DNA of 34,542 bases from Acidobacteriota bacterium. Its GTDB lineage: Bacteria > Acidobacteriota > Blastocatellia > HR10 > J050. The notes under the pieces were generated by a model, which did not search any database, was not told the DNA's origin, and saw only the letters and a program-made list of their open reading frames with translations. Positions 1 through 30,584 of the stretch are shown piece by piece (position 1 is the stretch's first letter; each line of letters begins with the position of its first letter). The stretch covers positions 1-34,542 of the forward strand of contig RFHM01000475.1 in assembly GCA_003696865.1 (NCBI GenBank). The letters run 5' to 3'. A program made the position numbers and the translations under genes.

Positions 1-1120
1 CCTCCAATGTGGTCAACAGCATGTCGCGGCCGATCTCACTGGGAGCATAATAGAGCAGCAATTGGATCCAGAATAGCTGAAACCCGGCCGCGACCAGCCC
101 GACCAGCGCTGCCGTGAGCATGCCCAGTCGCAATCGCAGCATGGGCATCCGACTGGCTTGCTTCAGGTCGCGGAGGAGCACGGCCCTGAGGGAGATCGGA
201 ACCAGACGAAGGAGGCGATCTACTACTGGACCGCCATCGATTCGAGCTGACAACCGGGATTGGTGGCGAGGTTGGACTCCTCCCATCCACTGATCTGGTC
301 GCGCCATCACTTCCATGTCGTGACGTGTGAGGTGCGCCCACATACGTGCGGCGAGCCACAACAGCATCCCCGTCAAAAGAGCCAGTCCTCCACCCAACCA
401 AAGGCTTTCAGCCGTTCCCTTCACAATACCTTCGTTGAGTCGCGAAAGAATCCAAAGAGGGATGAGGAACAGAGTCGCCCATGCTCGATCATCAGTGACT
501 CTGAGTCCCCTCAACAGCGATGACCAGCGGGCAATTAGCACTGCGCCGCCGGACAGTAGCAAGAGGGACATCCCTATCAAAGCGACTTCTCGACGAGCAG
601 GGGGGATGATCCTCCCCCAGAGCAGCCCCGCCAGAATCCCACAGGATGCGGCTAAGCTTGCTCCTGACAGAGCAGCCAACAACATGGCCACACTCCACAG
701 CACCAATCGCGATGCCGCCCACCCGCCAGGAGGATTGACACTCCATACTCCCCAACCGGCAGTGATTGCCCATACCCCCATCACTAAGGCGAGGCGAAGG
801 GAACGGATCATGACCTCCGCCAGACGGACGGCGGCCAGATCAGCGAGGCGAACGGGCAAACTCAGGAGAAATTCTTCCTCAGTTCGAGCATCACCGAGGA
901 GCAACGTCAGTGTCGAGGTTAAAGCCCCGAGCAGTGAGACGAAAACGATCATCAGGATAGTGATATCCCCGCCTAACTTCAGGAGGCGATCGGGTTCTTC
1001 GGTAGCAAGAAACAGAGCGCTCTTCCGACCCGCTACGTAGACTACGCCCAGGACGAGCAGCATACCTCCCCCACCAACTGCTCTGGCCGTTGAGGACCGA
1101 GCCTGGGCCCGCCGCCGCAT
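1..1120 (-). CDS. Polytopic membrane protein, C-terminal end cut by the window edge; probable membrane partner of the adjacent C39-ABC ATPase
   Basis: Absent from the ORF track because it runs off the window. Hand translation of the minus strand from ATG 1120-1118 gives MRRRAQARSSTARAVGGGGMLLVLGVVYVAG... and ends ...YYAPSEIGRDMLLTTLE at position 2. I checked every tca/tta/cta triplet in 1-1120 and none falls in this frame. Several hydrophobic stretches are present (ITILMIVFVSLLGALTSTLTLLL, LVLWSVAMLLAALSGASLAASCGILAGLLW, LIGMSLLLLSGGAVLI, GLALLTGMLLWLAA, LGMLTAALVGLVAAGF). It starts 22 nt after the ATPase stop. An alternative start is ATG 1063, preceded by GGGGGAGG. Family not recognised. Confidence 0.6.
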   Translation of the reverse strand, partial: MRRRAQARSSTARAVGGGGMLLVLGVVYVAGRKSALFLATEEPDRLLKLGGDITILMIVFVSLLGALTSTLTLLLGDARTEEEFLLSLPVRLADLAAVRLAEVMIRSLRLALVMGVWAITAGWGVWSVNPPGGWAASRLVLWSVAMLLAALSGASLAASCGILAGLLWGRIIPPARREVALIGMSLLLLSGGAVLIARWSSLLRGLRVTDDRAWATLFLIPLWILSRLNEGIVKGTAESLWLGGGLALLTGMLLWLAARMWAHLTRHDMEVMARPDQWMGGVQPRHQSRLSARIDGGPVVDRLLRLVPISLRAVLLRDLKQASRMPMLRLRLGMLTAALVGLVAAGFQLFWIQLLLYYAPSEIGRDMLLTTLE

Positions 1121-1142
1121 ACGAAGGAGAGTCCGCACTGTC

Positions 1143-2615
1143 TTATTCATCATCTTTGGCCATATCGGGTTCGGGGATTCCCTCGGCCTGCGGGTCGGTG
1201 AGCTTGAGAAAGAGATCTTCCAAGCTGGCCTGGGGATGCCCGACGAGTTCTCTCAACTCGGCCAATGTCCCCACGAACAATAACGTACCTTGGTCGAGGA
1301 TGCCGACACGATCGGCGATCCGCTCGGCAATCTCCAGAACATGTGTGGTCATGAGCACAGTATGCCCACGGTCGCGCAGAACGCGTAGCTGGTCTTTCAC
1401 CAGACGTGCCGATCGAGGATCCAAACCCTGCGTCGGTTCATCCAGGAGCAGGAGCGATGGCTCGTGCAGTTGAGCGGCAATGAAGGCGATCTTCCGGCGC
1501 ATACCATGAGAGAGAGCGCCAATGCGCGTATCCATCTTATCACCCAAAGCCATCGTCTGGAGAGCATCAATGATGCGCTCTTCCAGCTGCTTCTGGTCGT
1601 CCAGCCCATAAAGTTGTCCCACGAAGAGCAAATATTCCCGGGGAGTCAGGCGCTCATAAAGGAACAGACGCTCGGGCATATAGCCGATCGAACGGCGCGA
1701 CAGCAGACGCTCGGCTTCCGAGGCGGCCCACAGATCAATTCCATGGAGGATGATCTGGCCCGAACTCGGTGGGAGAATGCCCGTCATCATTTTCACCAGC
1801 GTCGTCTTCCCAGCTCCATTAGGCCCCAGCAAACAGAAGACCTCGCCAGCATGCAACTGGAGACTCACCTGCCGCACAGCCCAAACCCGCCGTTGATAGA
1901 CACGCGACACGCGCTTCAAAATGACTGGTGGAGAAGAGGCCACGGGAGCCACCGGCGGCAACGTCTCCTTCTCCACAGAAATATCGCTCATGCTATCCGG
2001 CGAAGAGGCTGCCTCTCCATTCACTGGGCCCGGGGTTTCTCGCCCTCCCTCAGCATGGGCTCGCGAGGAAAACGGGCTTCCAACCAGAAGCGCGAATCCA
2101 TCCCACAGCCGTTGAAATCGCTGATGACTGAGTTCGATCAATCCCAGCAGAGGATCACGTACACGCACTTTGTGAGGAGTGGCCTCATCGATTACAACCC
2201 AATGCCGGTATGGCGGCACTGGCATCCCCAGCCTCCCCAGAAGGAACCGACCGAGGCGGACCCAAAGCTGATAGGGAAAGAGCCGTTCGCTCTCCAGGAT
2301 GATCACGGCTTTTAACCGCGAGGGGGTCCGACACAGAGGGACTAAATCGGCCGGTGCGTCCAGACGGAGCCCGCGCGTTTTCAACCCGTACTGCTCGAAC
2401 CACTGCGCCATATCCAGCATGCTCATCGCCCCAGACCTGAACCGATGGTTTGCCGCCTCTCCATCGTCCAACAAATTATAGTCCCTTAACACCATTTGCA
2501 CACAGGCTTGGCCGCACGAGTTGAGATTCGGCTGAAAAGTCACCCGGTCATCGGAGATGTATCGGAGACCATTCAGAAGGCAGAGAAGTTGTCGGATCAC
2601 TCGCATCTGTCCCAT
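1143..2615 (-). CDS. C39-type papain-like peptidase domain fused to an ABC nucleotide-binding domain, with no transmembrane domain
   Basis: From ORF 1143..2861. The first ~82 codons are R/W/S-rich and overlap the better-looking ORF 2707..2961, so I placed the start at ATG 2615 (or 2606). No good SD precedes either, so the start is uncertain. N-terminal C39 hallmarks: VTFQPNLNSCGQACVQMVLRDY (Gln plus catalytic Cys) and YRHWVVIDEATPHKVRVRDPLLG (His, Asp). A Pro/Ser-rich linker (ETPGPVNGEAASSPDS...LPPVAPVASSPP) follows. NBD motifs: Walker A LLGPNGAGKTT, signature-like LSHGMRRK, Walker B LLLLDEPTQGLD, H-loop MTTH. No hydrophobic TM segments. Confidence 0.85.
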   Translation of the reverse strand: MGQMRVIRQLLCLLNGLRYISDDRVTFQPNLNSCGQACVQMVLRDYNLLDDGEAANHRFRSGAMSMLDMAQWFEQYGLKTRGLRLDAPADLVPLCRTPSRLKAVIILESERLFPYQLWVRLGRFLLGRLGMPVPPYRHWVVIDEATPHKVRVRDPLLGLIELSHQRFQRLWDGFALLVGSPFSSRAHAEGGRETPGPVNGEAASSPDSMSDISVEKETLPPVAPVASSPPVILKRVSRVYQRRVWAVRQVSLQLHAGEVFCLLGPNGAGKTTLVKMMTGILPPSSGQIILHGIDLWAASEAERLLSRRSIGYMPERLFLYERLTPREYLLFVGQLYGLDDQKQLEERIIDALQTMALGDKMDTRIGALSHGMRRKIAFIAAQLHEPSLLLLDEPTQGLDPRSARLVKDQLRVLRDRGHTVLMTTHVLEIAERIADRVGILDQGTLLFVGTLAELRELVGHPQASLEDLFLKLTDPQAEGIPEPDMAKDDE

Positions 2616-2706
2616 GAGTAGACATAGGGAGATCAGGGGGATGAGTTCCCCAGGCGCCCTCCAACATCCCGAAGTTCTCCACGGAGCATACAACCTGTCT
2701 CTCGTA

Positions 2707-2961
2707 TCAGCCCGGTGGAGAATCCCCCGTCGGAATGGGGATGATGGTGACGCTTTTGATGTAGTCCAACGGACACCACACCGAGAACCCGCTCTTAGAG
2801 TCTGTCTCCACCAACAGGCCCCGTCGATGGTTGATGTCGAGGATGTTACGAGCAATTCCACAGAAGCTCAATTCGCCACGGCACCGGAGGACGATCCGGT
2901 GGCCGAGATATTTCTTTGCATTTCCGCTATGCAGTGAGCCATCGTCTGGTGTCACGTTCAT
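2707..2961 (-). CDS. Hypothetical 84-aa protein, operon member, family not recognised
   Basis: From ORF 2707..2982. I chose ATG 2961 because it forms an ATGA start/stop overlap with the PqqD-like gene (stop 2958-2960) and is preceded by GGGAGGA with a 9-nt spacer. Sequence: MNVTPDDGSLHSGNAKKYLGHRIVLRCRGELSFCGIARNILDINHRRGLLVETDSKSGFSVWCPLDYIKSVTIIPIPTGDSPPG. Composition is protein-like, unlike the overlapping frame. Confidence 0.55.
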   Translation of the reverse strand: MNVTPDDGSLHSGNAKKYLGHRIVLRCRGELSFCGIARNILDINHRRGLLVETDSKSGFSVWCPLDYIKSVTIIPIPTGDSPPG

Positions 2962-3233
2962 CGAGATTGTTCCTCCCGCCAAAGGAAATTCCTGGTAGTG
3001 ATCAATCCCACTGCCTCGAGCCTCGCCAACAAACGCTGTGTCTCAGACTCATCGATTCCCGCCTTCGACATCTGATGGATCAACTCCGTTACCGTGTACT
3101 CTTCGGCATCGATTAATACCCACAAGCGAGCCAGAGGTCCAGTGAGAAGTATCTCTCTTCGAGGCTCCGGTTGAATGACCCGGATATACCCCGACTCCTG
3201 CAACCAGAAAGTATTCCTAAGGTCTCGGAACAT
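2958..3233 (-). CDS. Stand-alone PqqD-family protein (RiPP recognition element, RRE)
   Basis: 91 aa. GYIRVIQPEPRREILLTGPLARLWVLIDAEEYTVTELIHQMSKAGIDESETQRLLARLEAVGLI follows the PqqD pattern: beta-strand segment, L-x-x-x-a-a-x-iW-x-l-iD, 't-v-x-e-l', then a helix ending '..L...GLI'. ATG at 3231-3233. Its first ~40 codons overlap the 3' end of the SPASM gene in another frame. Confidence 0.8.
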   Translation of the reverse strand: MFRDLRNTFWLQESGYIRVIQPEPRREILLTGPLARLWVLIDAEEYTVTELIHQMSKAGIDESETQRLLARLEAVGLITTRNFLWREEQSR

Positions 3234-4744
3234 CCTTCGGCAATAGCATGATTGTCCCTCCGGCCTAATCCTTTGTCGATCGCTCGGGCCAGCTTCTCAT
3301 CATCCGGACGAGAGACGTATTGGAGAAACTCTTCGTAGCAGTCGAGCATCACCGGACAGAATGGATCTCGCTCCGAGAGCCCGTTGGCCGTCGCGCGACA
3401 TCCGCCGCCACAGAAGTAGCGGTATATGCACTGTTGACAGATGGGATCGCCATCCACGGAGAAGACGGATCGATTCCAGACGCGGCCAGCAGCCCGAAGC
3501 TGTTCCAGCGATTGTTCGGGGAACTCCCCCAGCTGACATCCCTCCCGGTCAGTAAGAGCGGCACAGGGATAGCTCTTCCCTTGAGGATCGAAACTCAACA
3601 TGGTAATGCCCGCCCCACAATTGTCACGGTGAAGGTTTCGAGTGAGATTGGTCGCGTAGTTGAATGAAGCATCGAGGTACAGAGGCCGATATCGCATTCC
3701 GCGCGCGTCTTTTCGATCGGAGAGAATATTCACATAGAGACGTCGGAAATTAATGATTGCTTGGCGGAGGAAATCTGGTTTGAGGAATCCCGCCCTTTCC
3801 AGTCGTTCGTGTTGCGCAGGATGAGCCGGAGGTTTGGGATGGTTGAGATGAATGTAATCTGCCCCCAGATGATACCCTAATTTATTGAGCTCGGGAATCT
3901 GATCCACGTTGTCCGGCGTCGGCGTGAACGCCAGACCTCGAGTCACTCTCGCTCTGGTATCGTACAATCTCTTGAACACGCGAACGACGCGCGCAAACGC
4001 TCCCTTCCCCCGGATAGCATCATGCGTGGCAGCATCAATCCCGTCAATTGAGATTTGCAGATCATCGATCATCTCCACGAGATGGTCAAACACATTCTCC
4101 CCGGGCATAGTCCCATTTGAGATGACCTTGATGTGAAAGGGAGCCGTGTGGCGACATAACCGGACGAGGTCGAGGATCTGAGAGTGAAGCATGGGTTCGC
4201 CCCCAGAAAGGACAATCTGCCTGACGCCCAATCGCGCTGCTTGATCGAAGAGTTGGCGCGCCACGTCGAGAGGGAGTTCTCGCCCGGGGCGTTCCACAGG
4301 ATAATAACAGTGAGCACAACGGAGGTTGCACGTTGAAGTCACGTGTATCCAGAGTTGGAAGAGTTTCAGCTCCTCCAGCCTTCGAGGTCGCGAAGGAGAA
4401 CCAACCGCGGCCAATGGACTCTCCGATTCCTGATCAGAACCAGCAGACGCCTCACTCTCTCTCTCGACCTCCGCATAGCCTTGGCTGATGAGAACATCGA
4501 GAAACTGGAGGATCGACGGCCGCACGGCCTCGGCAGGCAATCCGTATCGGGCGACGGCCTTCGATACGATCTGCTCGGTGGTCAACGAACGCTCGCCAAG
4601 CAGGGCGAATATCCACGCTCCGACCTCTGATGTCCGTATCCAATCCGGGACTTCGGGACGCAGTAGAACGGCCGATCCATTTTCAAAGATTTTCACCACA
4701 GGATCACTCACACGACGAATTGATCCGGTGGGATCTCCGTTCAT
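3113..4744 (-). CDS. Radical SAM / SPASM-domain peptide maturase with an N-terminal PqqD-like (RRE) domain
   Basis: 543 aa. N-terminus: VVKIFENGSAVLLRPEVPDWIRTSEVGAWIFALLGERSLTTEQIVSKAVARYGLPAEAVRPSILQFLDVLISQGY (PqqD-like). Radical SAM cluster motif CNLRCAHC (CX3CX2C) and SAM-binding VLSGGEPMLH. Full SPASM signature: CGAGITMLSFDPQGKSYPC (CX12GX4C), CQQCIYRYFCGGGC (CX2CX5CX3C), and downstream FCPVMLDC. Strong SD (AGGAGGT) 5-6 nt before ATG 4744. ATGA overlap with the upstream gene. Confidence 0.9.
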   Translation of the reverse strand: MNGDPTGSIRRVSDPVVKIFENGSAVLLRPEVPDWIRTSEVGAWIFALLGERSLTTEQIVSKAVARYGLPAEAVRPSILQFLDVLISQGYAEVERESEASAGSDQESESPLAAVGSPSRPRRLEELKLFQLWIHVTSTCNLRCAHCYYPVERPGRELPLDVARQLFDQAARLGVRQIVLSGGEPMLHSQILDLVRLCRHTAPFHIKVISNGTMPGENVFDHLVEMIDDLQISIDGIDAATHDAIRGKGAFARVVRVFKRLYDTRARVTRGLAFTPTPDNVDQIPELNKLGYHLGADYIHLNHPKPPAHPAQHERLERAGFLKPDFLRQAIINFRRLYVNILSDRKDARGMRYRPLYLDASFNYATNLTRNLHRDNCGAGITMLSFDPQGKSYPCAALTDREGCQLGEFPEQSLEQLRAAGRVWNRSVFSVDGDPICQQCIYRYFCGGGCRATANGLSERDPFCPVMLDCYEEFLQYVSRPDDEKLARAIDKGLGRRDNHAIAEGCSETLGILSGCRSRGISGSFNRSLEERYFSLDLWLACGY

Positions 4745-6186
4745 TGGACACCTCCTTTGCTCAACTTGACTTGAGCATTCTCGTCGGCTTCGATCTCAGC
4801 AATGAGCCTATCGAGCTTGGCACGAAACTGTTCATGCCTTTGCCCGGTCAGGCCAACCATTTGTTTCCCTCGCCGACTTTCATGCTCAAGGAAATACAAG
4901 GCCCGTCTGAGATCATTCTTAGTGAACCGTTGAGTGTCATAGACCGGGGTCACCAAATCGTACTTTCGCCAATTTCGCGTCGTGATGGTGATACCCAACT
5001 TCTCAGCGTCTTCGAAGAGCCGCGTTCCCGGAAATGGCGTTGATATACCGATGGCTGCCGTCCCAATGCCGTGATCACGAATCGCCTGAGCAAAGAGGAT
5101 CGTCTTCTCGATCGTAGCACGTGTGTCCGCATGATGGCCAATGATGAAGGAACAGTCCACACGCAAGCCATGACGTCGCGCAACCCGGATGGCCTCAAAC
5201 GTCTGCTCCAACCGAATATGTTTGGCAATCGCATCGAGGACACCCTGATCAGCACTTTCCACTCCGATGTGGATGGATAGACAACCAGCACGGGACATGA
5301 GAGCACAGATTTCATCACTCACTCGATCCACGCGACTTTTACATGCCCAACGAGGCGGCTCGCTGCCCGGCCACGCTGTGAGGAGATAATGACAGAACGC
5401 CTCGGCCCGCTTTCGATGAACGGTGAACGTATCATCAAGGAAGACCATGCGATTGAATCCATAGCGCCGAAAATATTCGTAAGCGAGTGAAAAGACCCAC
5501 TCGGCGGAATGAAATCGATATCGCTTCCCGGACATGGCCCGTGAAGCACAGAAAACACAATCACCGGGGCAACCCGGACTGGAGACGAACATGAAACTCT
5601 CCTTATAGGACTCTTGGAGTGCAGGCACCGACTCGTAACTTGGGAAAGGAAGGAGATCGAGGTTCGTGACAAATGGACGCGTGGGATTGGAGCGTACAGC
5701 GCCATTGACATCCCGATAGGCGAGCGACTGAATGCGCTCCACAGGCAATCCTTGCGGATGCTGCAGATGTTCCAAGAGTTCGACCATCGCCGACTCGCCC
5801 TCATGACGGATGACGAAATCAATGCAATCATAAGATAGCACCTCATCGGGCCGGAAGGTGGCATGGGGGCCACCAGCAACAATACAGGTCTCAGGGAAAA
5901 GTTCACGGACAAGAGCGGCAACCTCTATACCTTCATAGAAACACTCCGTGTAAAGAGAAATGCCCACCGCCAACGGACTCCGAGACAAAGTCGCCAACCG
6001 ACGCCGGAAATCCTGTCGGGAATGATCTTCAATCATCATATCCACGACGTGCACGGTGTACCCGTGGAGCTTCAAAAATGCGGCAATATGGAGGAGTCCT
6101 ACCGGCGGATAGGGATACTTCTCCTTGAACATCTCGCGCATCGCCGATGAACTTGCTGGCTCAATGAGCATCACATCCCGATTCAT
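4741..6186 (-). CDS. B12-binding-domain radical SAM enzyme (class B radical SAM, methyltransferase-like)
   Basis: 481 aa. The N-terminal Rossmann-type cobalamin-binding region (VMLIEPASS...YPYPPVGLLHIAAFLKLHGYTVHVVD...AVGISLYT) is followed by the radical SAM motif SSPGCPGDCVFCAS (CX3CX2C). SD GAGGGA lies 5 nt before ATG 6186. Confidence 0.85.
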   Translation of the reverse strand: MNRDVMLIEPASSSAMREMFKEKYPYPPVGLLHIAAFLKLHGYTVHVVDMMIEDHSRQDFRRRLATLSRSPLAVGISLYTECFYEGIEVAALVRELFPETCIVAGGPHATFRPDEVLSYDCIDFVIRHEGESAMVELLEHLQHPQGLPVERIQSLAYRDVNGAVRSNPTRPFVTNLDLLPFPSYESVPALQESYKESFMFVSSPGCPGDCVFCASRAMSGKRYRFHSAEWVFSLAYEYFRRYGFNRMVFLDDTFTVHRKRAEAFCHYLLTAWPGSEPPRWACKSRVDRVSDEICALMSRAGCLSIHIGVESADQGVLDAIAKHIRLEQTFEAIRVARRHGLRVDCSFIIGHHADTRATIEKTILFAQAIRDHGIGTAAIGISTPFPGTRLFEDAEKLGITITTRNWRKYDLVTPVYDTQRFTKNDLRRALYFLEHESRRGKQMVGLTGQRHEQFRAKLDRLIAEIEADENAQVKLSKGGVQ

Positions 6187-6299
6187 ATGCTTCCCTCACT
6201 CATTGGGAGGAGTGCAGGACACACCCCTCCCCTTACTTCAGCTTTTAACAACAGTACGTACAGAACGGCTATGCCGGAAGAGGTGATCAGTCCCATCAT
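6183..6299 (-). CDS. Possible 38-aa micro-ORF between the precursor and the B12-rSAM gene (small hydrophobic peptide)
   Basis: Below the ORF-track length cutoff, so hand-translated codon by codon: MMGLITSSGIAVLYVLLLKAEVRGGVCPALLPMSEGSI*. Its TGA (6183-6185) overlaps the ATG (6184-6186) of the B12-rSAM gene as ATGA, the same junction type used elsewhere in this operon. There is no convincing SD. It starts 25 nt after the precursor stop. It could be fortuitous. Confidence 0.3.
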   Translation of the reverse strand: MMGLITSSGIAVLYVLLLKAEVRGGVCPALLPMSEGSI

Positions 6300-6324
6300 T
6301 TGAAGCTGACCGAGATACTCCGCA

Positions 6325-6513
6325 TCACGGTGAACCAGGAACAGCATCATCATCTATGATGTCTACAACGGCGATCACCACAGCTCCAAAGGCGCTTCCG
6401 CACTCAATCACTGCAGCAACGAAAGCCGGCACGGCCCCACCAGAAATGCCTGCCATCTCTGCTTCACTCAACTCAGTTGATGTAATCGGTGTCGGATCAA
6501 TGAAGAGATTCAT
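6325..6513 (-). CDS. RiPP precursor peptide with a double-glycine leader (62 aa)
   Basis: From ORF 6325..6519. The track's first codon is TTG. I prefer ATG 6513, which sits 7 nt downstream of GAGGAGGT (6521-6528). Leader: MNLFIDPTPITSTELSEAEMAGISGG, which matches the double-glycine consensus (hydrophobic at -4 I, -7 M and -12 L; Glu at -8; GG at -2/-1). Core: AVPAFVAAVIECGSAFGAVVIAVVDIIDDDAVPGSP. It is the first gene of an operon that also encodes a C39 peptidase, two radical SAM enzymes and RRE domains. Confidence 0.8.
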   Translation of the reverse strand: MNLFIDPTPITSTELSEAEMAGISGGAVPAFVAAVIECGSAFGAVVIAVVDIIDDDAVPGSP

Positions 6514-6550
6514 CACCAATACCTCCTCAGGAAACTCTCACTCCTCAATG

Positions 6551-6580
6551 GAGCGGCAAACTCAAAAGAATTTGCCGCTC
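6551..6580. promoter_or_regulatory. Perfect 10-bp inverted repeat with a 10-nt spacer, 38 nt upstream of the precursor start codon (operator or 5'-UTR hairpin)
   Basis: GAGCGGCAAA (6551-6560), ctcaaaagaa, TTTGCCGCTC (6571-6580). A second palindrome, ATGCAA-T-TTGCAT, lies at 6588-6600 and shares the TTTGC core. No U-tract follows on the minus-strand transcript, so it is not a classic terminator for that strand. Confidence 0.4.
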
Positions 6581-7507
6581 TGTCTTAATGCAATTTGCAT
6601 ACCGTGGAGAGAGTCGAAGGACCAGATTGGCAACTCGCTCATGAACGGAATGTTACATGGCACATGCGGAACCCGCATCAGTATGGCTCCTGGAGTCACT
6701 GGCCATATATCGTCACCAAAGAGGTTGATTATCCCCCGAAGGAACTCACCAGCTCATTGATCCACAATAAGTTACGTTATTGGCGACGTATCACCAGTAA
6801 GTGACTGAATATCGCCAGAAGCGACAGTGGAAGAGAAGCAAGCAGGAAAGTTCAACACTTCTCACACAAATACGCTCTCCCAATCCTGCAGAATTCTTTT
6901 CCTCCCCTCCCCCTCCTCACCCCGCTCCTCCGGGCAGGAATGCCCATCTGCTTCACACGCCTTCCGAGAACATCTTGACCAACCTTACCAGGATTTGATC
7001 ATCCTCTATGAGCATAACCAGCAAAGAGCATCGCTGACACAGACGCCGGTTCCCCGCAGCCCTGGCGATACCATGCCCATCGCTGGGAGCAAGTGCACGC
7101 TCATGAGCGCCCCCCGTCGTTGTTCATCGTGATCACCTCACCGGTTGGCACGCCTCAGGCTCAAACCATGTGACCCTTTGCTATTGAGCTTCTGTGAAGC
7201 GAACGAATGAATGATCAAGCTTTCCGACCATCCGTGTGGAAGGGCGGGAACCTGTGGAGAAACTCCCGCGGGAGTAGCTTGCACTTGGCGGCCATGTGGA
7301 TCTTCTTGGACCGTGCCGGATTGGTATGAAGGCTCGTCCTTTCCGTTCGGCGAAGTACAGCAACAGCCTGGAGCAATACACGGACTTTCCTTTCGCGACA
7401 AGAAGATGGCTCACAATGGGATTTCCCGCACATTTCAATCATCGTAGCCGACCTTCGTCCTTTTGCTCGTCCACCTTGTCATCGCGCCTTCCCTCTGCGT
7501 ATGATCA

Positions 7508-8443
7508 ATGTTTGCCGTTATGATGGGACGGATTTTCGTTCGACGGCTGGTGCTCGTCCTGCCGGTCATCTGGGCGGTGGTGACGCTCGTCTTCCTCCTC
7601 ATCCATATGGTACCCGGCGATCCCGTGCTCACCTATCTCGGCGAACGGGCTACGCCCGAACAAGTGGCCGAGATGCGCCACCGCTTCGGCCTGGATCGTC
7701 CCCTGTGGGAACAGTACATACACTACTGGCAACAGCTTCTCAAAGGGGATCTGGGGATCACTTTCTTCGATCGGCGCCCGGTCACGGAGAAGATTCTCGG
7801 ACGCTATCCGGCGACGATGGAGCTGGCGCTGGCTGCCCTCGTCGTCGCCATCTCCTTCTCCATTCCTCTGGGTGTGACCGCGGCCACACATCAAGGGAAG
7901 TTCGCCGATAGTATCGCATCCGTGGTCGCTCTGGTCGGCATCTCTCTCCCCAATTTCGCGCTGGGCCCGCTGATGATCCTCCTGTTCGCCGTGAAGCTGC
8001 GCTGGCTGCCCGCCTCGGGCATCGGTGGGCTCAATCACCTCGTCTTACCGGCGATCACCCTGGGCGCGGCGCTGGCCGCCATCCTCACGCGCATGGTCCG
8101 CTCCAGCGTCATCGAAGAACTCCGACAGGAATACGTCAAGACGGCTCGCGCCAAAGGACTCACCGAGCGCATCGTCATTTACAAGCACGTGCTCAAGAAT
8201 GGACTCATCCCGGTGGTGACCATCGTCGGACTCCAGTTCGGCGTGCTGTTGGGCGGAGCGATCATCACCGAACGCATCTTCAACTGGCCGGGCATCGGCA
8301 CGCTGACGATCGAGGCTATTTATGCGCGGGACTACCCTCTCGTCCAGGGGTGCATTCTGGTCATCGCGCTCACCTACGTCCTGGTCAATACGGCCACCGA
8401 TGTGGTCTACCGTCTGCTCGATCCGAGGATCAAGGTGGAATGA
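7508..8443 (+). CDS. ABC transporter permease, oligopeptide/dipeptide (DppB/OppB) family
   Basis: 311 aa. RIFVRRLVLVLPVIWAVVTLVFLLIHMVPGDPV...RFGLDRPLWEQY is a typical DppB/OppB N-terminus. The EAA-like region is VKTARAKGLTERIVIYKHVLKNGLIP. The start could instead be ATG 7520 or 7523. Confidence 0.85.
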   Translation: MFAVMMGRIFVRRLVLVLPVIWAVVTLVFLLIHMVPGDPVLTYLGERATPEQVAEMRHRFGLDRPLWEQYIHYWQQLLKGDLGITFFDRRPVTEKILGRYPATMELALAALVVAISFSIPLGVTAATHQGKFADSIASVVALVGISLPNFALGPLMILLFAVKLRWLPASGIGGLNHLVLPAITLGAALAAILTRMVRSSVIEELRQEYVKTARAKGLTERIVIYKHVLKNGLIPVVTIVGLQFGVLLGGAIITERIFNWPGIGTLTIEAIYARDYPLVQGCILVIALTYVLVNTATDVVYRLLDPRIKVE

Positions 8444-8612
8444 ATCACGTCCGGGAGAGGCGAAAGGCTCTCCGCTGGAGGCGAAAGATGAGCACCGAAA
8501 CCGGCCATCGAGAGACCAAGGGCACCAGGAGCGATTGCGGCTCCTCTTCTCCGCTCTGCCCGACATCTCGGCCACGGGAGACTGCGCCCCGACAGGGCGT
8601 CGATCACGCATC

Positions 8613-9422
8613 ATGAATCGACTGGCGAAAATTGGCTTGATCATCATCATCGTCCTGTTCATCGTGGCCATCTTCGCTCCCCAATTGGCGCCGGAGAGCA
8701 TCACGGCACAACAGCTCTCGGCTCGGTTGGAGGGACCATCCCTCGCTCATCCATTGGGGCGCGATCAATTCGGACGGGACCTCCTCTCTCGCCTCATCTT
8801 CGGCGCACGGGTCTCGATGCGCGTGGGGGTGACCGTGGTGGTCATCTGCTCGGTGATCGGCACGCTCATCGGGGCGATGGCCGGCTATTATGGCGGTTGG
8901 ATCGATCGCCTGGTCTCGGCGTTCATCTTCAACACCTTCCTCGCCTTTCCCGGCATCTTGCTGGCCATTGCCATGATCGCTTTTCTCGGACCCAGTCTCA
9001 ACAATGTCATCCTGGCCCTCTCGATCATCGGCTGGGTGAGTTATGCACGACTCATTCGAGGGCAGGTCCTCAAGGTCAAAGAACAGGATTTCGTCGTCGC
9101 CGCCCGAGCGCTGGGTTCGGGCGATCTTCGCATCGTGTGGCGGCACATCCTTCCCAATGCCATTCAACCGCTGATCGTCCAGGCCACGCTGGGCATGGCC
9201 GGAGCCGTACTGGCGGAGGCGGGATTGAGTTTTCTCGGTCTCGGCGTGCAAGAGCCGATGCCGAGCTGGGGCAAGATGCTCGATGCCGGCCGAGCCTACG
9301 TGACGATGGCGCCCCATATGGTCATCTTCCCCGGCCTGGCCATCATGATCACGGTGATGGCGTTCAACTTCGTCGGCGATGGCCTGCGGGAATGGCTCGA
9401 TCCGCAGCAGAAGAAAATTTGA
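8613..9422 (+). CDS. ABC transporter permease, DppC/OppC family
   Basis: From ORF 8322..9422. The first 97 codons are R/S-rich junk, so the start is placed at ATG 8613 (MNRLAKIGLIIIIVLFIVAIFAPQLAP...). Conserved LGRDQFGRDLLSRLIFGARVS and VVAARALGSGDLRIVWRHILPNAIQP segments. Confidence 0.85.
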   Translation: MNRLAKIGLIIIIVLFIVAIFAPQLAPESITAQQLSARLEGPSLAHPLGRDQFGRDLLSRLIFGARVSMRVGVTVVVICSVIGTLIGAMAGYYGGWIDRLVSAFIFNTFLAFPGILLAIAMIAFLGPSLNNVILALSIIGWVSYARLIRGQVLKVKEQDFVVAARALGSGDLRIVWRHILPNAIQPLIVQATLGMAGAVLAEAGLSFLGLGVQEPMPSWGKMLDAGRAYVTMAPHMVIFPGLAIMITVMAFNFVGDGLREWLDPQQKKI

Positions 9423-9462: not shown

Positions 9463-10461
9463 ATGGAACCAGCGATTCAGATCGAGCATCTGACCAAAAT
9501 CTTCGAGCGCCCGCTCCCTCGCTTGCGGCGTCTGCTGCGGCGGCCGGGCGAGGACCAGGTCGTAGCGTTGAATGACGTCAGTCTCACCATTCATGGAGGC
9601 GAGATCTTCGGTCTCGTGGGGCGGAATGGCGCCGGGAAGACGACGTTGGTCAAATCCATCGCTGCCCTCATCCAGCCCACGCGAGGCACGGTGCGCGTCT
9701 TCGGCCTGGACACCGTCGGTCACCCCCAAGAGGTAAAGCGTCATATTGGATTGGTGACCTCTGATGAGCGGAGCTTCTACTGGCGGCTCACCGGTTGGCA
9801 AAATTTACTTTTTTTCGCCCGACTCCATGGCATGGATGAGGCCGAGGCCCGTCGTCGCATTGAGGAATTGCTCGATCTCTTCGATCTCCGGGAGTTGAGG
9901 CATCGTCGGTTTCACGAGTACTCCACCGGCAATAAACAACGATTGGCGCTGGCTCGCGCGCTGTTGACCGATCCTCCGCTCATGCTGCTCGACGAGCCGA
10001 CGCGCAGCCTCGATCCCATCGCTGCCGATGAACTCCGGCGACTCATCCGGGAGCGAATGAACCATCTGGGTCAGAAAACCGTGTTGATGACGACGCATAA
10101 TCTGGCCGAGATCGAGCAACTCTGTGATCGCGTTGGGATTCTGAGTCAGGGGCGGTTGAAAGCCTGTGCTCCACTTCACGAACTCCAGGCACAATATGCC
10201 GTTCACGAAGAGGTGACGATTCGAGCCCGGTGTTCTCGAGGCGAAGACGGTTTGCAGGAACTTCGCGCGTCCATCCCCACGCTGTCGTGGACATCTCCAT
10301 CTCCGGGCATCATCGAGATCGTCTTCTCTCGACACGTCCAAGATGGAACGCTCACCATGGTGTTGGAAAAGCTCCTGGCCCGAGGAGCCGAGATCATGAG
10401 GTGTGAGGCGCATCGAATGGGCTTGAAAGACATCATGGAACACATCGAGCAACAGGGATGA
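9463..10461 (+). CDS. ABC transporter ATP-binding protein (ABC-2/DrrA-like exporter type)
   Basis: 332 aa. Walker A GRNGAGKTT, signature-like YSTGNKQRLALARAL, Walker B LMLLDEPTRSLD, H-loop MTTHN. Its stop overlaps the start of the next gene (10458-10461). Confidence 0.9.
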   Translation: MEPAIQIEHLTKIFERPLPRLRRLLRRPGEDQVVALNDVSLTIHGGEIFGLVGRNGAGKTTLVKSIAALIQPTRGTVRVFGLDTVGHPQEVKRHIGLVTSDERSFYWRLTGWQNLLFFARLHGMDEAEARRRIEELLDLFDLRELRHRRFHEYSTGNKQRLALARALLTDPPLMLLDEPTRSLDPIAADELRRLIRERMNHLGQKTVLMTTHNLAEIEQLCDRVGILSQGRLKACAPLHELQAQYAVHEEVTIRARCSRGEDGLQELRASIPTLSWTSPSPGIIEIVFSRHVQDGTLTMVLEKLLARGAEIMRCEAHRMGLKDIMEHIEQQG

Positions 10462-11264
10462 TGAAGCGATCGTTGAATATCATCTGGGCCTTTCTCGTCC
10501 GCGATGCCACGATGGCGTTGAGCTACCGGCTGGAATTCGGTCTGCGGGTGGCCTCGATTCTCTTCCTCGTCTCGGCGCTCTACTTCCTCTCCCAGTTGAT
10601 CGGCCACCATCCGGCGCTCGATCCTTACGGAGGGTATCTTCCCTTCGCCGCCATAGGATTGGCCGTGGTCAGCTACTTCCAGACGGGATTCAACAGCTTC
10701 GCCAATGCCATCAGGACGGAGCAATTGATGGGCACGCTGGAAGCCGTCCTCATGACGCCGACGCGCATTTCGATGATCGTCATGGGCTCCTCGGTGTGGA
10801 GTTTCCTCTGGGCGACGCTGACGGCGGTGATTTACATTGCCGCGGCCAGTCTGCTCTATGATATCGAACTGCGGGGGAATCCTCTTCTCGCTCTCGTCCT
10901 GCTCGTGTTGACGACGCTGGTGTTCGCCAGTCTGGGGGTCATCTCGGCCAGCTTCATCGTGGTGTTCAAGCGCGGCAATCCCATCGGATTTCTCGTCGGC
11001 GCCATCTCGATGTGGCTCGGTGGCGTGTTTTATCCAGTGAGCGCACTTCCCCCCTGGCTCCAGAAGGTGTCCTACCTGCTCCCCATCACCTATGGGCTCG
11101 ATGGCCTGCGCGAAATCCTGCTCCAGGGCGCGTCATTCTCGGCGGTGTGGCCGGAGCTGCTCGTGCTATCCGGCTTTGCCGCCGTCAGCGTCCCTCTGAG
11201 CCTTTATTGTTTCAACCGCGCCGTCCGGCGTGCACAACGGGAAGGGAGTTTGTTACAATACTGA
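10458..11264 (+). CDS. ABC-2 type transporter permease
   Basis: 268 aa with about six hydrophobic segments. ATGA-type overlap with the upstream ATPase. Typical ABC-2 layout (RDATMALSYRLEF..., ...LLPITYGLDGLREILL). Confidence 0.8.
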   Translation: MMKRSLNIIWAFLVRDATMALSYRLEFGLRVASILFLVSALYFLSQLIGHHPALDPYGGYLPFAAIGLAVVSYFQTGFNSFANAIRTEQLMGTLEAVLMTPTRISMIVMGSSVWSFLWATLTAVIYIAAASLLYDIELRGNPLLALVLLVLTTLVFASLGVISASFIVVFKRGNPIGFLVGAISMWLGGVFYPVSALPPWLQKVSYLLPITYGLDGLREILLQGASFSAVWPELLVLSGFAAVSVPLSLYCFNRAVRRAQREGSLLQY

Positions 11265-17380: not shown

Positions 17381-18847
17381 TCATTGATCCCGCAGGCTAG
17401 AACTTGAGAGAAGCGATATGGTCCTCGCGGTGCTCCCTCGCCGTCCCCGCGAATCCTTCGTTCCCACCGCCGACTCTTCTTGAACGGCCACCACGCGGAA
17501 TCCGACCGTCTCGTGCCTGGTATCCGGCGCCAGCTTGAGCCGGACGGCACAGCGCAAGGAACTCGGTCCGTAAAGCCACGCGCCGCCGCGGGCGACTTTC
17601 ATCGTCCCTTCGGGAGCTCCGCGAGGATTACGATGGTGACCACTGCGATAGAAGCTCACATCGTACCAGTCCCAACACCATTCCCACACATTTCCGGCCA
17701 TGTCATATAGCCCGTACCCGTTGGGTGGATAGCTCCCCACGGGCATCGTAGGCACGCCCAACGGAACTTGACCCTCCAGATAACAGGCTCGACCGGATGG
17801 CTCATCCTCGCCCCAGGGATACGTTTTTCCCACCAGGCCGCCCCGGGCCGCATATTCCCATTCGGCTTCCGTCGGCAATCGATACGTCCGCCCGGTCAGC
17901 GTGGCGAGCCACTGACAGTACGCCATGGCATCGTCCCAACTGACCATGACGACCGGATGGTTGGGATAGTTGACGAAATAATGATCCCACTCCTCGGGAT
18001 CGCGGGGATAGGGGTGACCGGTGGCATCACAAAATGCCTTGTACTGTGCATTGGTCACCTCCACCCGCCCGATAGCGAATCCGTCCACGTAGACCTTGTG
18101 CACCGGCTTCTCGTCCTCGCCGCCCGACTCGCTGCCCATGAGGAACCATCCACCGGGCAGTGAGATGAGTTCCGGCACGAGATACCCGTTCACCCGGACG
18201 CCGACCAACTCTCCGGTGCGCAGCAATGGGCGATCGGGACGGCCTTCGTCCAGTCGCACGATCGGGCGCCGGGCGCGTTTGACGTTCGTCGATCGAGCAT
18301 CGGGGCCAAAATCAACGTACAATTCCGTCTCCCGGCCCATTTCCACGACCACCGCTTGTGTGACGGGCTTCCGGTGGGGTAGCTTCACTGTGATCTCGTA
18401 TTTCCCTACCGGCACTTCCAGTCGATAGACCTCACGATCGTACGTCCCCAGCCCTCGGATCTCGATACGGGCATTAGCCGAACGCGATCTCACGCTCAGA
18501 TAGCCGATAGGGCGACCGAGTCTCAGGTGAAGAACGAGACGCTTATCGGGAGTAACGGTGATCGCGCGTTCCACCGGCCGGAACCATTTCTTACGCACCA
18601 GCAAGCGATGGCGTCCCGGTTCGATGCCGGTGAGGCGTAAGCCCGTCCCCCGCTCGGTCACCCCTCGCGAAACACCATCCAGGAGCACCTCTGCCCCCGC
18701 CGGATCGGTGAAGACGACGATCACGCCCCCCGATGGCGTGCGCTCACCTTGACCGGCGAGGACCACGATGAGCGAGACGACCACGACGCCGAGGGTCATG
18801 AACAGAAGGCGACCACTTCCGCTCCACATGTTCCGGTCGTTCATCAT
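17381..18847 (-). CDS. Membrane-anchored PEGA-repeat protein with a C-terminal formylglycine-generating-enzyme (FGE/SUMF1)-like domain
   Basis: 488 aa with an N-terminal TM/signal anchor (LLFMTLGVVVVSLIVVLAG). PEGA-like repeats (GGVIVVFTDPAGAEVLLDG, GYLSVRSRSANARIEI). FGE-fold motifs: GGWFLMGSE...EKPVHKVYVDGFAIGRVEVTNAQYKAF, WEYAARGG, GNVWEWCWDWY, VARGGAW. ATGA overlap with the upstream gene at 18844-18847. Confidence 0.85.
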   Translation of the reverse strand: MMNDRNMWSGSGRLLFMTLGVVVVSLIVVLAGQGERTPSGGVIVVFTDPAGAEVLLDGVSRGVTERGTGLRLTGIEPGRHRLLVRKKWFRPVERAITVTPDKRLVLHLRLGRPIGYLSVRSRSANARIEIRGLGTYDREVYRLEVPVGKYEITVKLPHRKPVTQAVVVEMGRETELYVDFGPDARSTNVKRARRPIVRLDEGRPDRPLLRTGELVGVRVNGYLVPELISLPGGWFLMGSESGGEDEKPVHKVYVDGFAIGRVEVTNAQYKAFCDATGHPYPRDPEEWDHYFVNYPNHPVVMVSWDDAMAYCQWLATLTGRTYRLPTEAEWEYAARGGLVGKTYPWGEDEPSGRACYLEGQVPLGVPTMPVGSYPPNGYGLYDMAGNVWEWCWDWYDVSFYRSGHHRNPRGAPEGTMKVARGGAWLYGPSSLRCAVRLKLAPDTRHETVGFRVVAVQEESAVGTKDSRGRRGSTARTISLLSSSSLRDQ

Positions 18848-28863: not shown

Positions 28864-29168
28864 ATTTTTTTCCAGCCCCGAGTGAAATGTCAGTGGGCAA
28901 TTATACGCCAAAGATGAACTGCGCTCCACACTCATCCGGCGATGAGTCGGTCAATGATTCCACTCGGCAATGCCGTGGCCCGCTCGGCCGCGGAAGAGTC
29001 AGTCATGGAATGCTCGCCGATTGAACGAGCGCCGCAATGGATTTTACCCATGGTTTAGTGTACACTGAAGAACTCGCTCTCACCGGATCGATCACAGTGA
29101 TCCATTTGGGCTGAGTCATCGAAGGTAGATTGAGCGATCAGGAGCGGGAATTTCACACGGAGGAAAGT

Positions 29169-30584
29169 ATGTCGAAAAAGTCACTCTCGATTTTCACGCT
29201 GGCCGTGGGACTCGTTTTTTTCAGACCGGGATTCAGCGCGGCAGAGATCACCCCGCCGGTTCTCCAGATTACCCGATACACGCTGGATAATGGGTTGACC
29301 GTTCTGCTGCACGAGGATCATTCGGCGCCGGTCATCAACCTGCAGATCTGGTATCACGTGGGCTCGAAAGACGAGCGGCCGGGTCGCACCGGGTTCGCCC
29401 ATCTATTCGAGCATATGATGTTCCAGGGATCCGAACACGTCGGTCCGGAGGAACATGGGCGATACGTACAGGATATCGGTGGTCGATACAATGCCTATAC
29501 GACCTTCGATGCGACGGTGTACTGGGAGACGTTTCCCAGCAATTACCTGGAACGCATGCTCTGGCTGGAAGCTGATCGCATGCGATCGTTGCGCATCACC
29601 GAGGAAAACTTCAAAGCCGAACGCGATGTGGTGAAAGAAGAACGGCGTTTGCGAGTAGAGAATCCGCCTTTCGGGCGCCTGCTGGAGGTCATCCTGGCGG
29701 CGACCTACAAAGTCCATCCCTATCGTCGACCTCCCATCGGCTCGATGAAAGATTTGAACGCTGCCAGCCTCGCCGACGTGCGCGAATTCCATCAGCTCTA
29801 TTACGTTCCCAATAACGCCACGCTGATCATCGCCGGCGATTTTCGTCCTCGACGAGCCATGAAATGGGTCAAACGGCATTTCGGATCCATTCCTCGCGGC
29901 AAGCCGATTCCTCGTCAGCGACCGTCCGAGCCCCCACAGAAAAGCGAACGTCGGGTCATCGAATACGATTCCAAGGCTCCTTTGCCCGCCGTCATCATCA
30001 CGTATCACGTTCCGCAGGACGGGCACCCGGACATCTACGCCCTCAATGTGGCCAGCAACATTCTCAGTGCCGGTCAGAGTTCGCGCCTCTATCGCACACT
30101 GGTATACGAGAAGCAACTGGCCATTGCGGCTGCCGGGCAAACGTTGGCTCTGGAAGATCCGGGAGTGTTCGCCTTCTTCGCTATCATGAACCAGGGACAG
30201 TCGGCCGAGCAGGGCGAACGAGCGCTGCTCCAGGAGATCGAGCGACTCAAACGGGATCTCGTCAGCCAGCAGGAGTTGGAGAAAGCCAAGAATCAGTTCG
30301 TCGCCGAGCTCGTGTTCGGGCGACAATCGGTACAGCAGAAAGCCAGCGCCATCGGGCAAGCTGCCGTCATCCTCGGCGATGCGGTGCTGGTCAACGAGCA
30401 ACTCGCACGATACCAGAAAGTCACCGCCGCCGATGTCCAGCGCGTGGCGCGAACCTATTTCACCGAGCAGAATCGCACCGTCGTCTATATGTTACCCGAA
30501 GCCCTGCGCCCCAAAGGAGATCGGACGCCTGAGCGCCAGCGGACAAAGCTCGATGGCGAAAAACGGGAGGAGCAAGAACGATGA
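29169..30584 (+). CDS. M16 (pitrilysin) family zinc peptidase, catalytically competent subunit
   Basis: From ORF 29130..30584. I chose ATG 29169, downstream of GGAGGAAAG. Signal peptide MSKKSLSIFTLAVGLVFF... Inverted zinc motif HxxEH in GFAHLFEHMMFQGS, with a downstream Glu region (EERRLRVEN). Confidence 0.9.
   Translation: MSKKSLSIFTLAVGLVFFRPGFSAAEITPPVLQITRYTLDNGLTVLLHEDHSAPVINLQIWYHVGSKDERPGRTGFAHLFEHMMFQGSEHVGPEEHGRYVQDIGGRYNAYTTFDATVYWETFPSNYLERMLWLEADRMRSLRITEENFKAERDVVKEERRLRVENPPFGRLLEVILAATYKVHPYRRPPIGSMKDLNAASLADVREFHQLYYVPNNATLIIAGDFRPRRAMKWVKRHFGSIPRGKPIPRQRPSEPPQKSERRVIEYDSKAPLPAVIITYHVPQDGHPDIYALNVASNILSAGQSSRLYRTLVYEKQLAIAAAGQTLALEDPGVFAFFAIMNQGQSAEQGERALLQEIERLKRDLVSQQELEKAKNQFVAELVFGRQSVQQKASAIGQAAVILGDAVLVNEQLARYQKVTAADVQRVARTYFTEQNRTVVYMLPEALRPKGDRTPERQRTKLDGEKREEQER

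Follow-up and report, generated by a model that had tools for sequence, protein, structure and literature searches.

A candidate family of double-glycine-leader peptides encoded beside B12-binding and SPASM radical SAM enzymes in an Acidobacteriota contig

In polytheonamide biosynthesis, a radical S-adenosylmethionine (SAM) epimerase is paired with B12-dependent C-methyltransferases. Epipeptide clusters encode a small peptide, their own ATP-binding cassette (ABC) transporter and a SPASM-type radical SAM enzyme whose targets are Val/Ile; they are not known to hold a B12 enzyme. We analyzed a 34,542-nucleotide stretch of contig RFHM01000475.1 from an Acidobacteriota bacterium (the window), in which a short gene at positions 6325–6513 of the minus strand is followed by genes for a B12-binding radical SAM enzyme, a SPASM-type radical SAM enzyme and ABC transport. 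The locus shares with epipeptides the small peptide, the SPASM-type enzyme and a transporter, and differs from them in its B12 enzyme. We consider it very probable that the short gene encodes the genuine precursor of a radical SAM-modified RiPP (a peptide synthesized ribosomally and modified post-translationally) with a double-glycine-type leader, because of its ribosome-binding site and reading frame, the selection acting on it, its 46 relatives, the constant set of genes around it, the conservation of both leader and core, and the domains of the neighboring enzymes.

The precursor gene and the parts of its product were located as follows.
6325–6513, minus strand: precursor peptide gene of 62 codons, from the ATG at 6513 to the TGA at 6327–6325, identified by its translation, its homologues in the same operon slot and its third-codon-position bias
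6522–6526 (read 6526–6522), minus strand: ribosome-binding site GGAGG, 8 nt ahead of the ATG at 6513
6436–6513, minus strand: leader, residues 1–26, MNLFIDPTPITSTELSEAEMAGISGG, with the motif F-(I/V)-D-P-x-P-(I/V) at residues 4–10 and a double-glycine-type cleavage site
6328–6435, minus strand: core, residues 27–62, AVPAFVAAVIECGSAFGAVVIAVVDIIDDDAVPGSP, with the Cys codon at 6400–6402 within the conserved motif C-G-S-A-F-G

The reverse complement of 6325–6513 translates to MNLFIDPTPITSTELSEAEMAGISGGAVPAFVAAVIECGSAFGAVVIAVVDIIDDDAVPGSP and then a stop. The plus strand of the same segment contains stops throughout, which ruled out a plus-strand reading and placed the open reading frame (ORF) of the precursor on the minus strand. 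The N-termini of the relatives (M-x-F/L-F-I/V-D-P) matched a start at the ATG at 6513, and a TTG two codons upstream was rejected as the start since it lies too near the GGAGG. When the gene was compared with three relatives, the nucleotide differences at codon positions 1/2/3 of the minus-strand frame were 13/5/36, 14/4/32 and 12/4/36; this excess at the third position indicates purifying selection in the minus-strand precursor frame. Judged from these patterns, we regard the gene as genuine and selected. A 134-codon ORF at 6356–6760 of the plus strand lies antisense to the precursor gene, and a similar ORF was observed in locus L001. We rejected it as a gene: the 13/5/36 pattern in minus-strand codons marks it as an antisense shadow of the precursor gene, and it belongs to no family, whereas the minus-strand peptide family is conserved.

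A word-indexed search of 5.8 billion proteins returned one relative of the precursor, peptide P0002 (67% identity), whose contigs carry two tandem 55-aa precursor copies and then the same genes as the window. The tandem copies in these closest relatives, L001 (155–600) and L002 (1773–2218), are near-identical, and the window has a single copy. The search was then widened via homologues of the SPASM enzyme and their contigs, which yielded eight divergent precursors; a subsequent profile search gave 20 clusters, and a hidden Markov model run in full against 1.84 billion representatives retrieved 29 (representatives at 50% identity; E ≤ 1e-3). In total, the family comprises 46 distinct peptides in public data, and none of them bears an informative name, the sole name on record being 'hypothetical protein'. 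No relative was found when species-representative genomes were scanned with the precursor alignment or when the JGI metagenomes were scanned with the alignment of the close-clade precursors. When the SPASM enzyme alignment was run over the species-representative genomes, 80 loci emerged at ≤27–37% identity, none of which showed the leader motif, indicating that they belong to other SPASM families. This rare family falls outside all curated models.

The same gene set adjoins the precursor in L001, L005–L012, L015–L018 and L099–L101; it comprises the B12-radical SAM enzyme, a radical SAM/SPASM enzyme with a RiPP recognition element (RRE), a separate RRE, an Sm-like protein, a C39 peptidase, a DrrA-type ATPase and a large membrane protein. 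L013, L014 and L102 stop early and are consistent with this set as far as they extend. The linkage between precursor and enzymes persists down to approximately 30% enzyme identity, including Firmicutes-like contigs of metagenome-assembled genomes from fermentation metagenomes (L015–L018). In some clades the two enzymes occur in swapped order and the C39 peptidase and ATPase are encoded by separate genes. That short ORFs should be conserved beside radical SAM genes had been put forward as a check in an initial annotation of this DNA, and the 46 relatives, in the same operon position in the loci inspected, bear it out.

The window leader carries G at −1 and −2, I at −4, M at −7, E at −8, S at −11 and L at −12. 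The initial annotation had described a precursor with a double-glycine-type leader and had named all of these positions except S−11; the minus-strand translation verified them, and the operon contains a C39 domain with conserved Gln/Cys/His/Asp. In an alignment of 20 sequences, P7 and G26 were invariant and F4, D6, P9, E19 and C38 nearly so. Two leader elements were conserved: the N-terminal F-(V/I)-D-P-x-P-(I/V)-(T/S), and a cleavage site whose last residue is Gly and whose −2 position is G, A or V in the 20 aligned relatives. The clade to which the window belongs has the classical double-glycine pattern (L−12, S−11, E−8, M−7 and a hydrophobic residue at −4); the cleavage site of the closest relatives is AG, in some VG, rather than GG, and clades with longer leaders have two additional residues between the E-M pair and the GG. 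No NCBIfam or Pfam match to an NHLP/Nif11-type leader was found in the window peptide or in any of the 20 relatives. Two models were rejected as the precursor family, since each matched the window peptide alone among 20 family members and below its cut-off: TIGR04497 (ATP-grasp target RiPPs; 20.4 bits, cut-off 32), confined to the leader region, and TIGR03949 (lactobin A/cerein 7B; 18.3 bits, cut-off 21.5). An ATP-grasp gene was absent from every locus inspected.

The window core has 36 residues, with Cys at position 12, Asp at 25, 28, 29 and 30, and AVP at 1–3 and again at 31–33. All of this agrees with the initial annotation, which had miscounted only the composition (nine Val and nine Ala, where we found eight of each). 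Core residues 1–24 are transmembrane-like, with a grand average of hydropathy (GRAVY, the Kyte–Doolittle mean) of 2.18; the core contains a small-xxx-small motif of the GxxxG type (GSAFG) and lacks Trp and Tyr, Phe being its sole aromatic residue. Val, Ile, Thr, Ala and Gly dominate the cores across the family. Anchoring all 46 sequences on the core Cys gave the motif (V/I)(I/V)-x-C-(G/A/S/N)-x-x-(F/L)-(G/A)-x-x-(V/T)-(I/V). The Cys itself, kept in 44 of the 46, is the best-conserved core residue, and it is followed by F/L at +4 in 42 of 44 sequences and by G/A at +5 in 39 of 44. Alignment of the relatives had been proposed as a way to tell which core positions are invariant; Cys12 came close to this, and the Asp cluster and the second AVP did not. 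The Asp cluster is missing from P0031, P0040, P0042 and P0044, so that a ranthionine link to the Asp tail, as once suggested, is unlikely as a family-wide feature. Similarly, the idea that the second AVP marks a processing or cyclization site lost its footing: the window alone has the tail DAVPGSP, close relatives end in ...IIHD or ...VIDD, and among the relatives only P0029 has a comparable ending (...DIAVPD). At the other end of the core, an N-terminal A-(V/I/L)-P-A is frequent in the relatives without being universal.

The operon genes all lie on the minus strand downstream of the precursor gene.
4741–6186, minus strand: B12-binding radical SAM enzyme, 481 aa, with Pfam B12-binding and Radical_SAM domains; conserved in the family
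3113–4744, minus strand: radical SAM/SPASM peptide maturase, 543 aa, with an N-terminal PqqD-type RRE (residues 25–89), a Radical_SAM domain, CX3CX2C and seven SPASM Cys
2958–3233, minus strand: separate RRE-like protein, 91 aa, conserved in the family, with a Pfam PqqD match in two of eight members (E = 2.5e-4)
2707–2982, minus strand: small protein with an Sm-like barrel; six relatives aligned at 36–55% identity; start codon uncertain in the window; 68–91 aa in relatives
1143–2861, minus strand: C39 peptidase domain fused to a DrrA-type ABC ATPase; longest ORF 572 codons, from the GTG at 2861; Pfam Peptidase_C39 and ABC_tran
1–1153, minus strand: large multi-pass membrane protein, presumed permease, partial, running off the left end of the window

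The initial annotation had invoked a SPASM enzyme and a B12-radical SAM enzyme; both adjoin the precursor gene, the SPASM enzyme with an RRE domain. The B12-radical SAM enzyme scored below the cut-off of every NCBIfam model. Its best match was ApyD, a Tyr C-beta methyltransferase (PMC10635010), with 167 bits against a cut-off of 750; the ApyD, BchE and HpnJ models gave 153–167 bits against cut-offs of 480–750, and the RiPP C-methyltransferase model TIGR03975 gave 69 against 282. The nearest structures in the PDB were AprD4, 9ccb, TokK, OxsB and CysS.

In the SPASM enzyme, the cluster ligands are C139/C143/C146 of the CX3CX2C motif and the SPASM cysteines C376, C394, C436, C439, C445, C449 and C463, all of which are conserved in the family. 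Its best NCBIfam model was the sactisynthase StsB (NF045574), with 125 bits against a cut-off of 625; the same model was the top NCBIfam match for all nine family enzymes, with a best E-value of 8e-40 across the family. The PapB and SCIFF models gave 77 against 340 and 66 against 425 bits, and WgkB and DynA were also among the matches. When the family profile was compared with the PDB, the thioether synthase CteB (5wgg) ranked first (110.8 bits, over the whole radical SAM and SPASM region), followed by PqqE, SkfB, anSME and SuiB, and the SPASM epimerase YydG/EpeE matched the profile with 40 bits over the radical SAM core alone. By these scores, the SPASM enzyme resembles the thioether-forming maturases CteB, StsB and SkfB more than YydG, and it fits no curated family. 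The window enzyme is approximately 40 residues longer at its C-terminus than its relatives (543 vs ~503 aa), and the overlap of its gene with that of the RRE-like protein (3113–3233) is 121 nt in the window vs approximately 10–50 nt in relatives.

An AlphaFold2 model of the separate 91-aa protein (predicted local distance difference test score, pLDDT, 74) best matched the RRE of the lasso-peptide protein TbiB1 (template modeling (TM) score 0.68–0.72, root-mean-square deviation 2.2 Å) and the RRE of CteB; an hhalign comparison of this small family with the RRE of the SPASM enzyme was insignificant and told less than the fold match. The Sm-like protein gene lies between the RRE-protein gene and the C39 gene in most family loci. 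Its product has no Pfam family; it was modeled by AlphaFold2 as a five-stranded barrel (pLDDT 66), for which Foldseek gave weak top matches to Sm/LSm proteins (E ~0.014, TM ~0.5).

The C39 domain matched PF03412 with 46 bits against a cut-off of 22, and its catalytic residues Q110, C116, H220 and D236 were invariant in seven relatives; the ATPase part matched TIGR01188 (drrA) with 215 bits. The true start of this protein is probably near a TTG at approximately 2693, because the longest ORF overlaps the small-protein gene and the relatives have 504–512 aa. The fusion contains no transmembrane (ABC_membrane) domain. In other clades, separate genes encode the C39 peptidase (167–218 aa) and the ATPase (244–261 aa). 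The membrane protein is 37% identical to a 550-aa counterpart at the same position in L001, and no Pfam family is on record for it in the loci inspected. The PADLOC defense models matched neither the small proteins nor the membrane protein.

We propose the following pathway for the locus. The 62-aa peptide would be made from the minus strand. The RRE of the SPASM enzyme and the separate 91-aa RRE, whose folds were both recognized, would then bind the conserved leader motif, F-I-D-P-T-P-I-T in the window. The separate RRE probably serves the B12 enzyme, which lacks one itself. The SPASM enzyme would modify (V/I)(I/V)-x-C-(G/A/S)-x-x-(F/L)-G by joining the sulfur of Cys12 to a nearby carbon. We tentatively favor such a thioether to a carbon of a neighboring residue, for which Phe16 or Gly17 would be the best-conserved candidate partners; a link through Cys is reasonable because Cys is the best-conserved core residue and the nearest characterized relatives of the SPASM enzyme form thioethers. 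The B12-radical SAM enzyme would C-methylate at least one unactivated carbon of the Val/Ile/Ala-rich core, a step we consider about as likely as not. The membrane-anchored C39 domain, in which the catalytic set is complete, is predicted to cut after Gly26 at the double-glycine-type site, and the DrrA-type ATPase and the large membrane protein would export a hydrophobic, acid-tailed peptide of approximately 36 residues. The product is probably membrane-active and bacteriocin-like, as suggested by its hydrophobicity and small-xxx-small motif.

Several observations weigh against this pathway. We infer every one of its chemical steps, and both enzymes score so far below all curated cut-offs that their reactions cannot be read from homology. 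The reactions of B12-radical SAM enzymes also extend beyond methylation (PMC10635010). The exporter departs from the canonical transporter in which a C39 domain, a transmembrane domain and a nucleotide-binding domain are joined. In addition, two precursors lack the Cys: P0043 (L009–L012) and P0065 (L101–L102), with the cores AVPAILLAVGVSVAVSVVISIVIA and VFFWPAVLVSVAVSAGVSVAVSVGTR. These cores are rich in V-S-V-A-V-S, and their clade is Ser-rich. Their loci keep both enzymes, with all ten cluster-ligand cysteines intact, and the enzymes of this clade are 36–37% identical to the window enzyme, about as close as those of the Cys-containing clades. The SPASM reaction therefore cannot depend on Cys family-wide: either it is Cys-independent, or the donor has been switched in the Cys-less clade, for example to Ser. 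The modification may accordingly differ from a classical sactionine, and the Cys-less members may represent a natural switch of substrate chemistry. The earlier suggestion of a thioether from a single Cys beside a SPASM enzyme is reasonable in view of the Cys in 44 of 46 peptides and of the thioether-forming nearest enzymes, and it does not extend to the Cys-less members, which keep the enzymes nonetheless. Lastly, the family is apparently undescribed, as judged from the silence of NCBIfam, Pfam and the PDB, and a published description of it may exist.

Among the alternatives to a thioether, the one that survives best is an epimerized and C-methylated peptide of the polytheonamide/proteusin or epipeptide kind, although we consider it unlikely. 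The SPASM enzyme would generate several D-Val/Ile/Ala residues and methyl groups would come from the B12 enzyme; the product would be beta-helical or insert into membranes in some other form, with the Cys serving as a structural, hydrogen-transfer or recognition element. The family-wide predominance of Val, Ile, Thr, Ala and Gly in the cores, a B12-radical SAM enzyme that is always present and an intact SPASM enzyme beside Cys-less precursors would all suit this, as would the enzyme pairing of polytheonamide biosynthesis. However, CteB matched the family profile over its full length with 111 bits, whereas YydG/EpeE reached 40 bits on the radical SAM core only, a comparison that covered YydG as its single epimerase. 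Neither the window peptide nor its 20 relatives showed an NHLP/Nif11-type leader, and simple epimerization does not account for a Cys kept in 44 of 46 sequences within a fixed motif.

Somewhat less likely again is a SPASM reaction that is not an epimerization and yields a crosslink other than a thioether. Examples would be a C–C or C–O bond involving the nearly invariant Phe/Leu at +4 from the Cys, or, in the Cys-less clade, an ether derived from Ser. The thioether enzymes are the top matches and Cys is the most conserved core residue, both of which speak for the thioether instead, and the window core offers no Trp or Tyr, with Phe as its only aromatic residue. The conservation downstream of the Cys (F/L at +4 in 42 of 44, G/A at +5 in 39 of 44), the presence of PqqE (which forms a C–C bond), WgkB, DynA and SuiB among the enzyme matches, and the Ser-rich character of the Cys-less clade are the reasons to keep it in mind.

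We regard it as very improbable that the product is an unmodified class II (IIb-like) double-glycine bacteriocin that merely lies near unrelated radical SAM genes. The GSAFG motif, the tandem precursor pair in L001 and L002 and the weak TIGR03949 match (18.3 vs 21.5 bits) would be in keeping with such a bacteriocin, but that match is below the cut-off and confined to one of 20 members, the linkage of the precursor with two RREs and both radical SAM enzymes holds at every locus, down to 30% enzyme identity, and its N-terminal leader motif is typical of RRE-dependent pathways. That the gene is a chance ORF, or a shadow of the 134-codon plus-strand ORF over the same DNA that has a counterpart in L001, is next to impossible given the 13/5/36 distribution of differences in minus-strand codons, the correctly placed ribosome-binding site, the conserved gene order and a peptide family that is conserved where the plus-strand ORF has none.

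We also inspected the surroundings of the operon, where one further element was noted.
6205–6231, minus strand: 11-bp hairpin GGGAGGGGTGT-GTCCT-GCACTCCTCCC, within the 138-nt spacer that separates the precursor gene from the B12-radical SAM gene

The hairpin is GC-rich and is followed by no T-run, and the fold stability of the 138-nt spacer did not differ significantly from that of shuffled sequences (z = −1.3). It could possibly act as a transcript-processing or attenuation element. A scan for promoters and terminators gave no excess over chance expectation, and Rfam models returned nothing credible over 6000–7600. The region of approximately 1 kb upstream of the precursor (6514–7500) contained no convincing gene and no Rfam match, and it showed no DNA or protein similarity to related loci except L003, which has the same sequence. 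Beyond it, two oligopeptide-permease genes (7508–9422) precede a second ABC system on the plus strand (9463–11264; a 332-aa ATPase and a 268-aa ABC-2 permease), approximately 3 kb from the precursor and on the opposite strand; the L001 cluster also adjoins an oligopeptide ATPase. The second ABC system could be a self-protection transporter or could be unrelated. Far from the cluster, and probably without relation to it, are two adjacent M16 (insulinase-type) peptidase genes (29130–32728, plus strand; 484 and 715 aa). A 488-aa protein (17381–18847, minus strand) combines PEGA, carboxypeptidase-regulatory-like and FGE-sulfatase (formylglycine-generating-enzyme-like) domains. The rest of the window is housekeeping in character, with methylmalonyl-CoA mutase, seryl-tRNA synthetase, RNase II/R and GlgC.

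If the proposed reading is correct, the window holds a member of a small, widely scattered RiPP family in which no curated model covers the precursor, the two radical SAM enzymes or the two small accessory proteins. The family would pair two radical SAM chemistries on a very hydrophobic substrate, and such pairings have yielded unusual membrane-active natural products. Its Cys-containing and Cys-less substrates, served by about equally related enzymes, would constitute a natural experiment on how a SPASM enzyme switches reaction type, and the fusion of C39 to a DrrA-type ATPase would couple leader removal with export in a non-standard manner. Whether the family amounts to a new RiPP class is a question on which we are evenly divided; such a class would consist of transmembrane-like peptides of approximately 30–40 residues that combine a new radical SAM modification around C-(G/A/S)-x-x-(F/L)-G with B12-dependent alkylation, two RREs, an Sm-like accessory protein and a non-canonical C39/ABC-2-type exporter. 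As many uncharacterized radical SAM RiPP families exist, we regard this one as a genome-mining lead rather than a conceptual surprise.

Among known systems, the sactipeptides (streptosactin/StsB, subtilosin/AlbA, SKF/SkfB) resemble the family in their SPASM maturase, which has an RRE at its N-terminus, the complete set of seven SPASM cysteines and motifs for two auxiliary Fe–S clusters. StsB is the top NCBIfam model for nine family enzymes, SkfB is among the best PDB matches, and the first half of the family core contains a conserved, donor-like Cys. They differ in that the window enzyme reaches only 125 of 625 bits against the StsB model, the window peptide has one Cys only, the family core is of extreme hydrophobicity and resembles a transmembrane segment, Cys is lacking in two clade members, and the family adds a second RRE, an Sm-like protein and a B12-radical SAM partner that is obligatory. 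For the ranthipeptides/SCIFF peptides (CteB, PapB), the likeness lies in CteB as the best solved-structure match of the family profile and in the model of the separate RRE, which resembles the CteB RRE; however, the window peptide has one Cys and no six-Cys SCIFF pattern, Asp/Thr acceptors are not conserved in the family, and the window enzyme scores are low (PapB 77/340, SCIFF 66/425 bits). The proteusins (polytheonamides, aeronamide, landornamide) share the long Val/Ile/Thr/Ala/Gly-rich core, the B12-radical SAM enzyme beside a second radical SAM enzyme and an expected membrane-active product. In contrast to the NHLP/Nif11 leaders of proteusins, the family leader is short and of the double-glycine type with F-V-D-P-x-P; the second enzyme is a SPASM protein nearest to thioether synthases, and the family has a Cys motif and C39/ABC processing and export. 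Bacteriocins handled by peptidase-containing ABC transporters or ABC transporter maturation and secretion proteins (PCAT/AMS; ComA, LagD, LahT type) match the window leader (L−12, S−11, E−8, M−7, I−4, G−2, G−1) and the operon C39 domain with its Gln/Cys/His/Asp, whereas the family C39 is fused to, or apart from, a DrrA/ABC-2-type ATPase without a transmembrane domain, a separate membrane protein of 480–555 aa has no Pfam family, and the relatives use an AG or VG site. In the case of the epipeptides (YydF/EpeX, YydG/EpeE), YydG matches the family profile on the radical SAM core alone (40 bits), and their leader and core are unrelated. By analogy with these systems, the locus would work as a double-glycine-leader RiPP matured by an RRE-dependent SPASM enzyme, like sactipeptides and ranthipeptides, with a proteusin-like B12 step.

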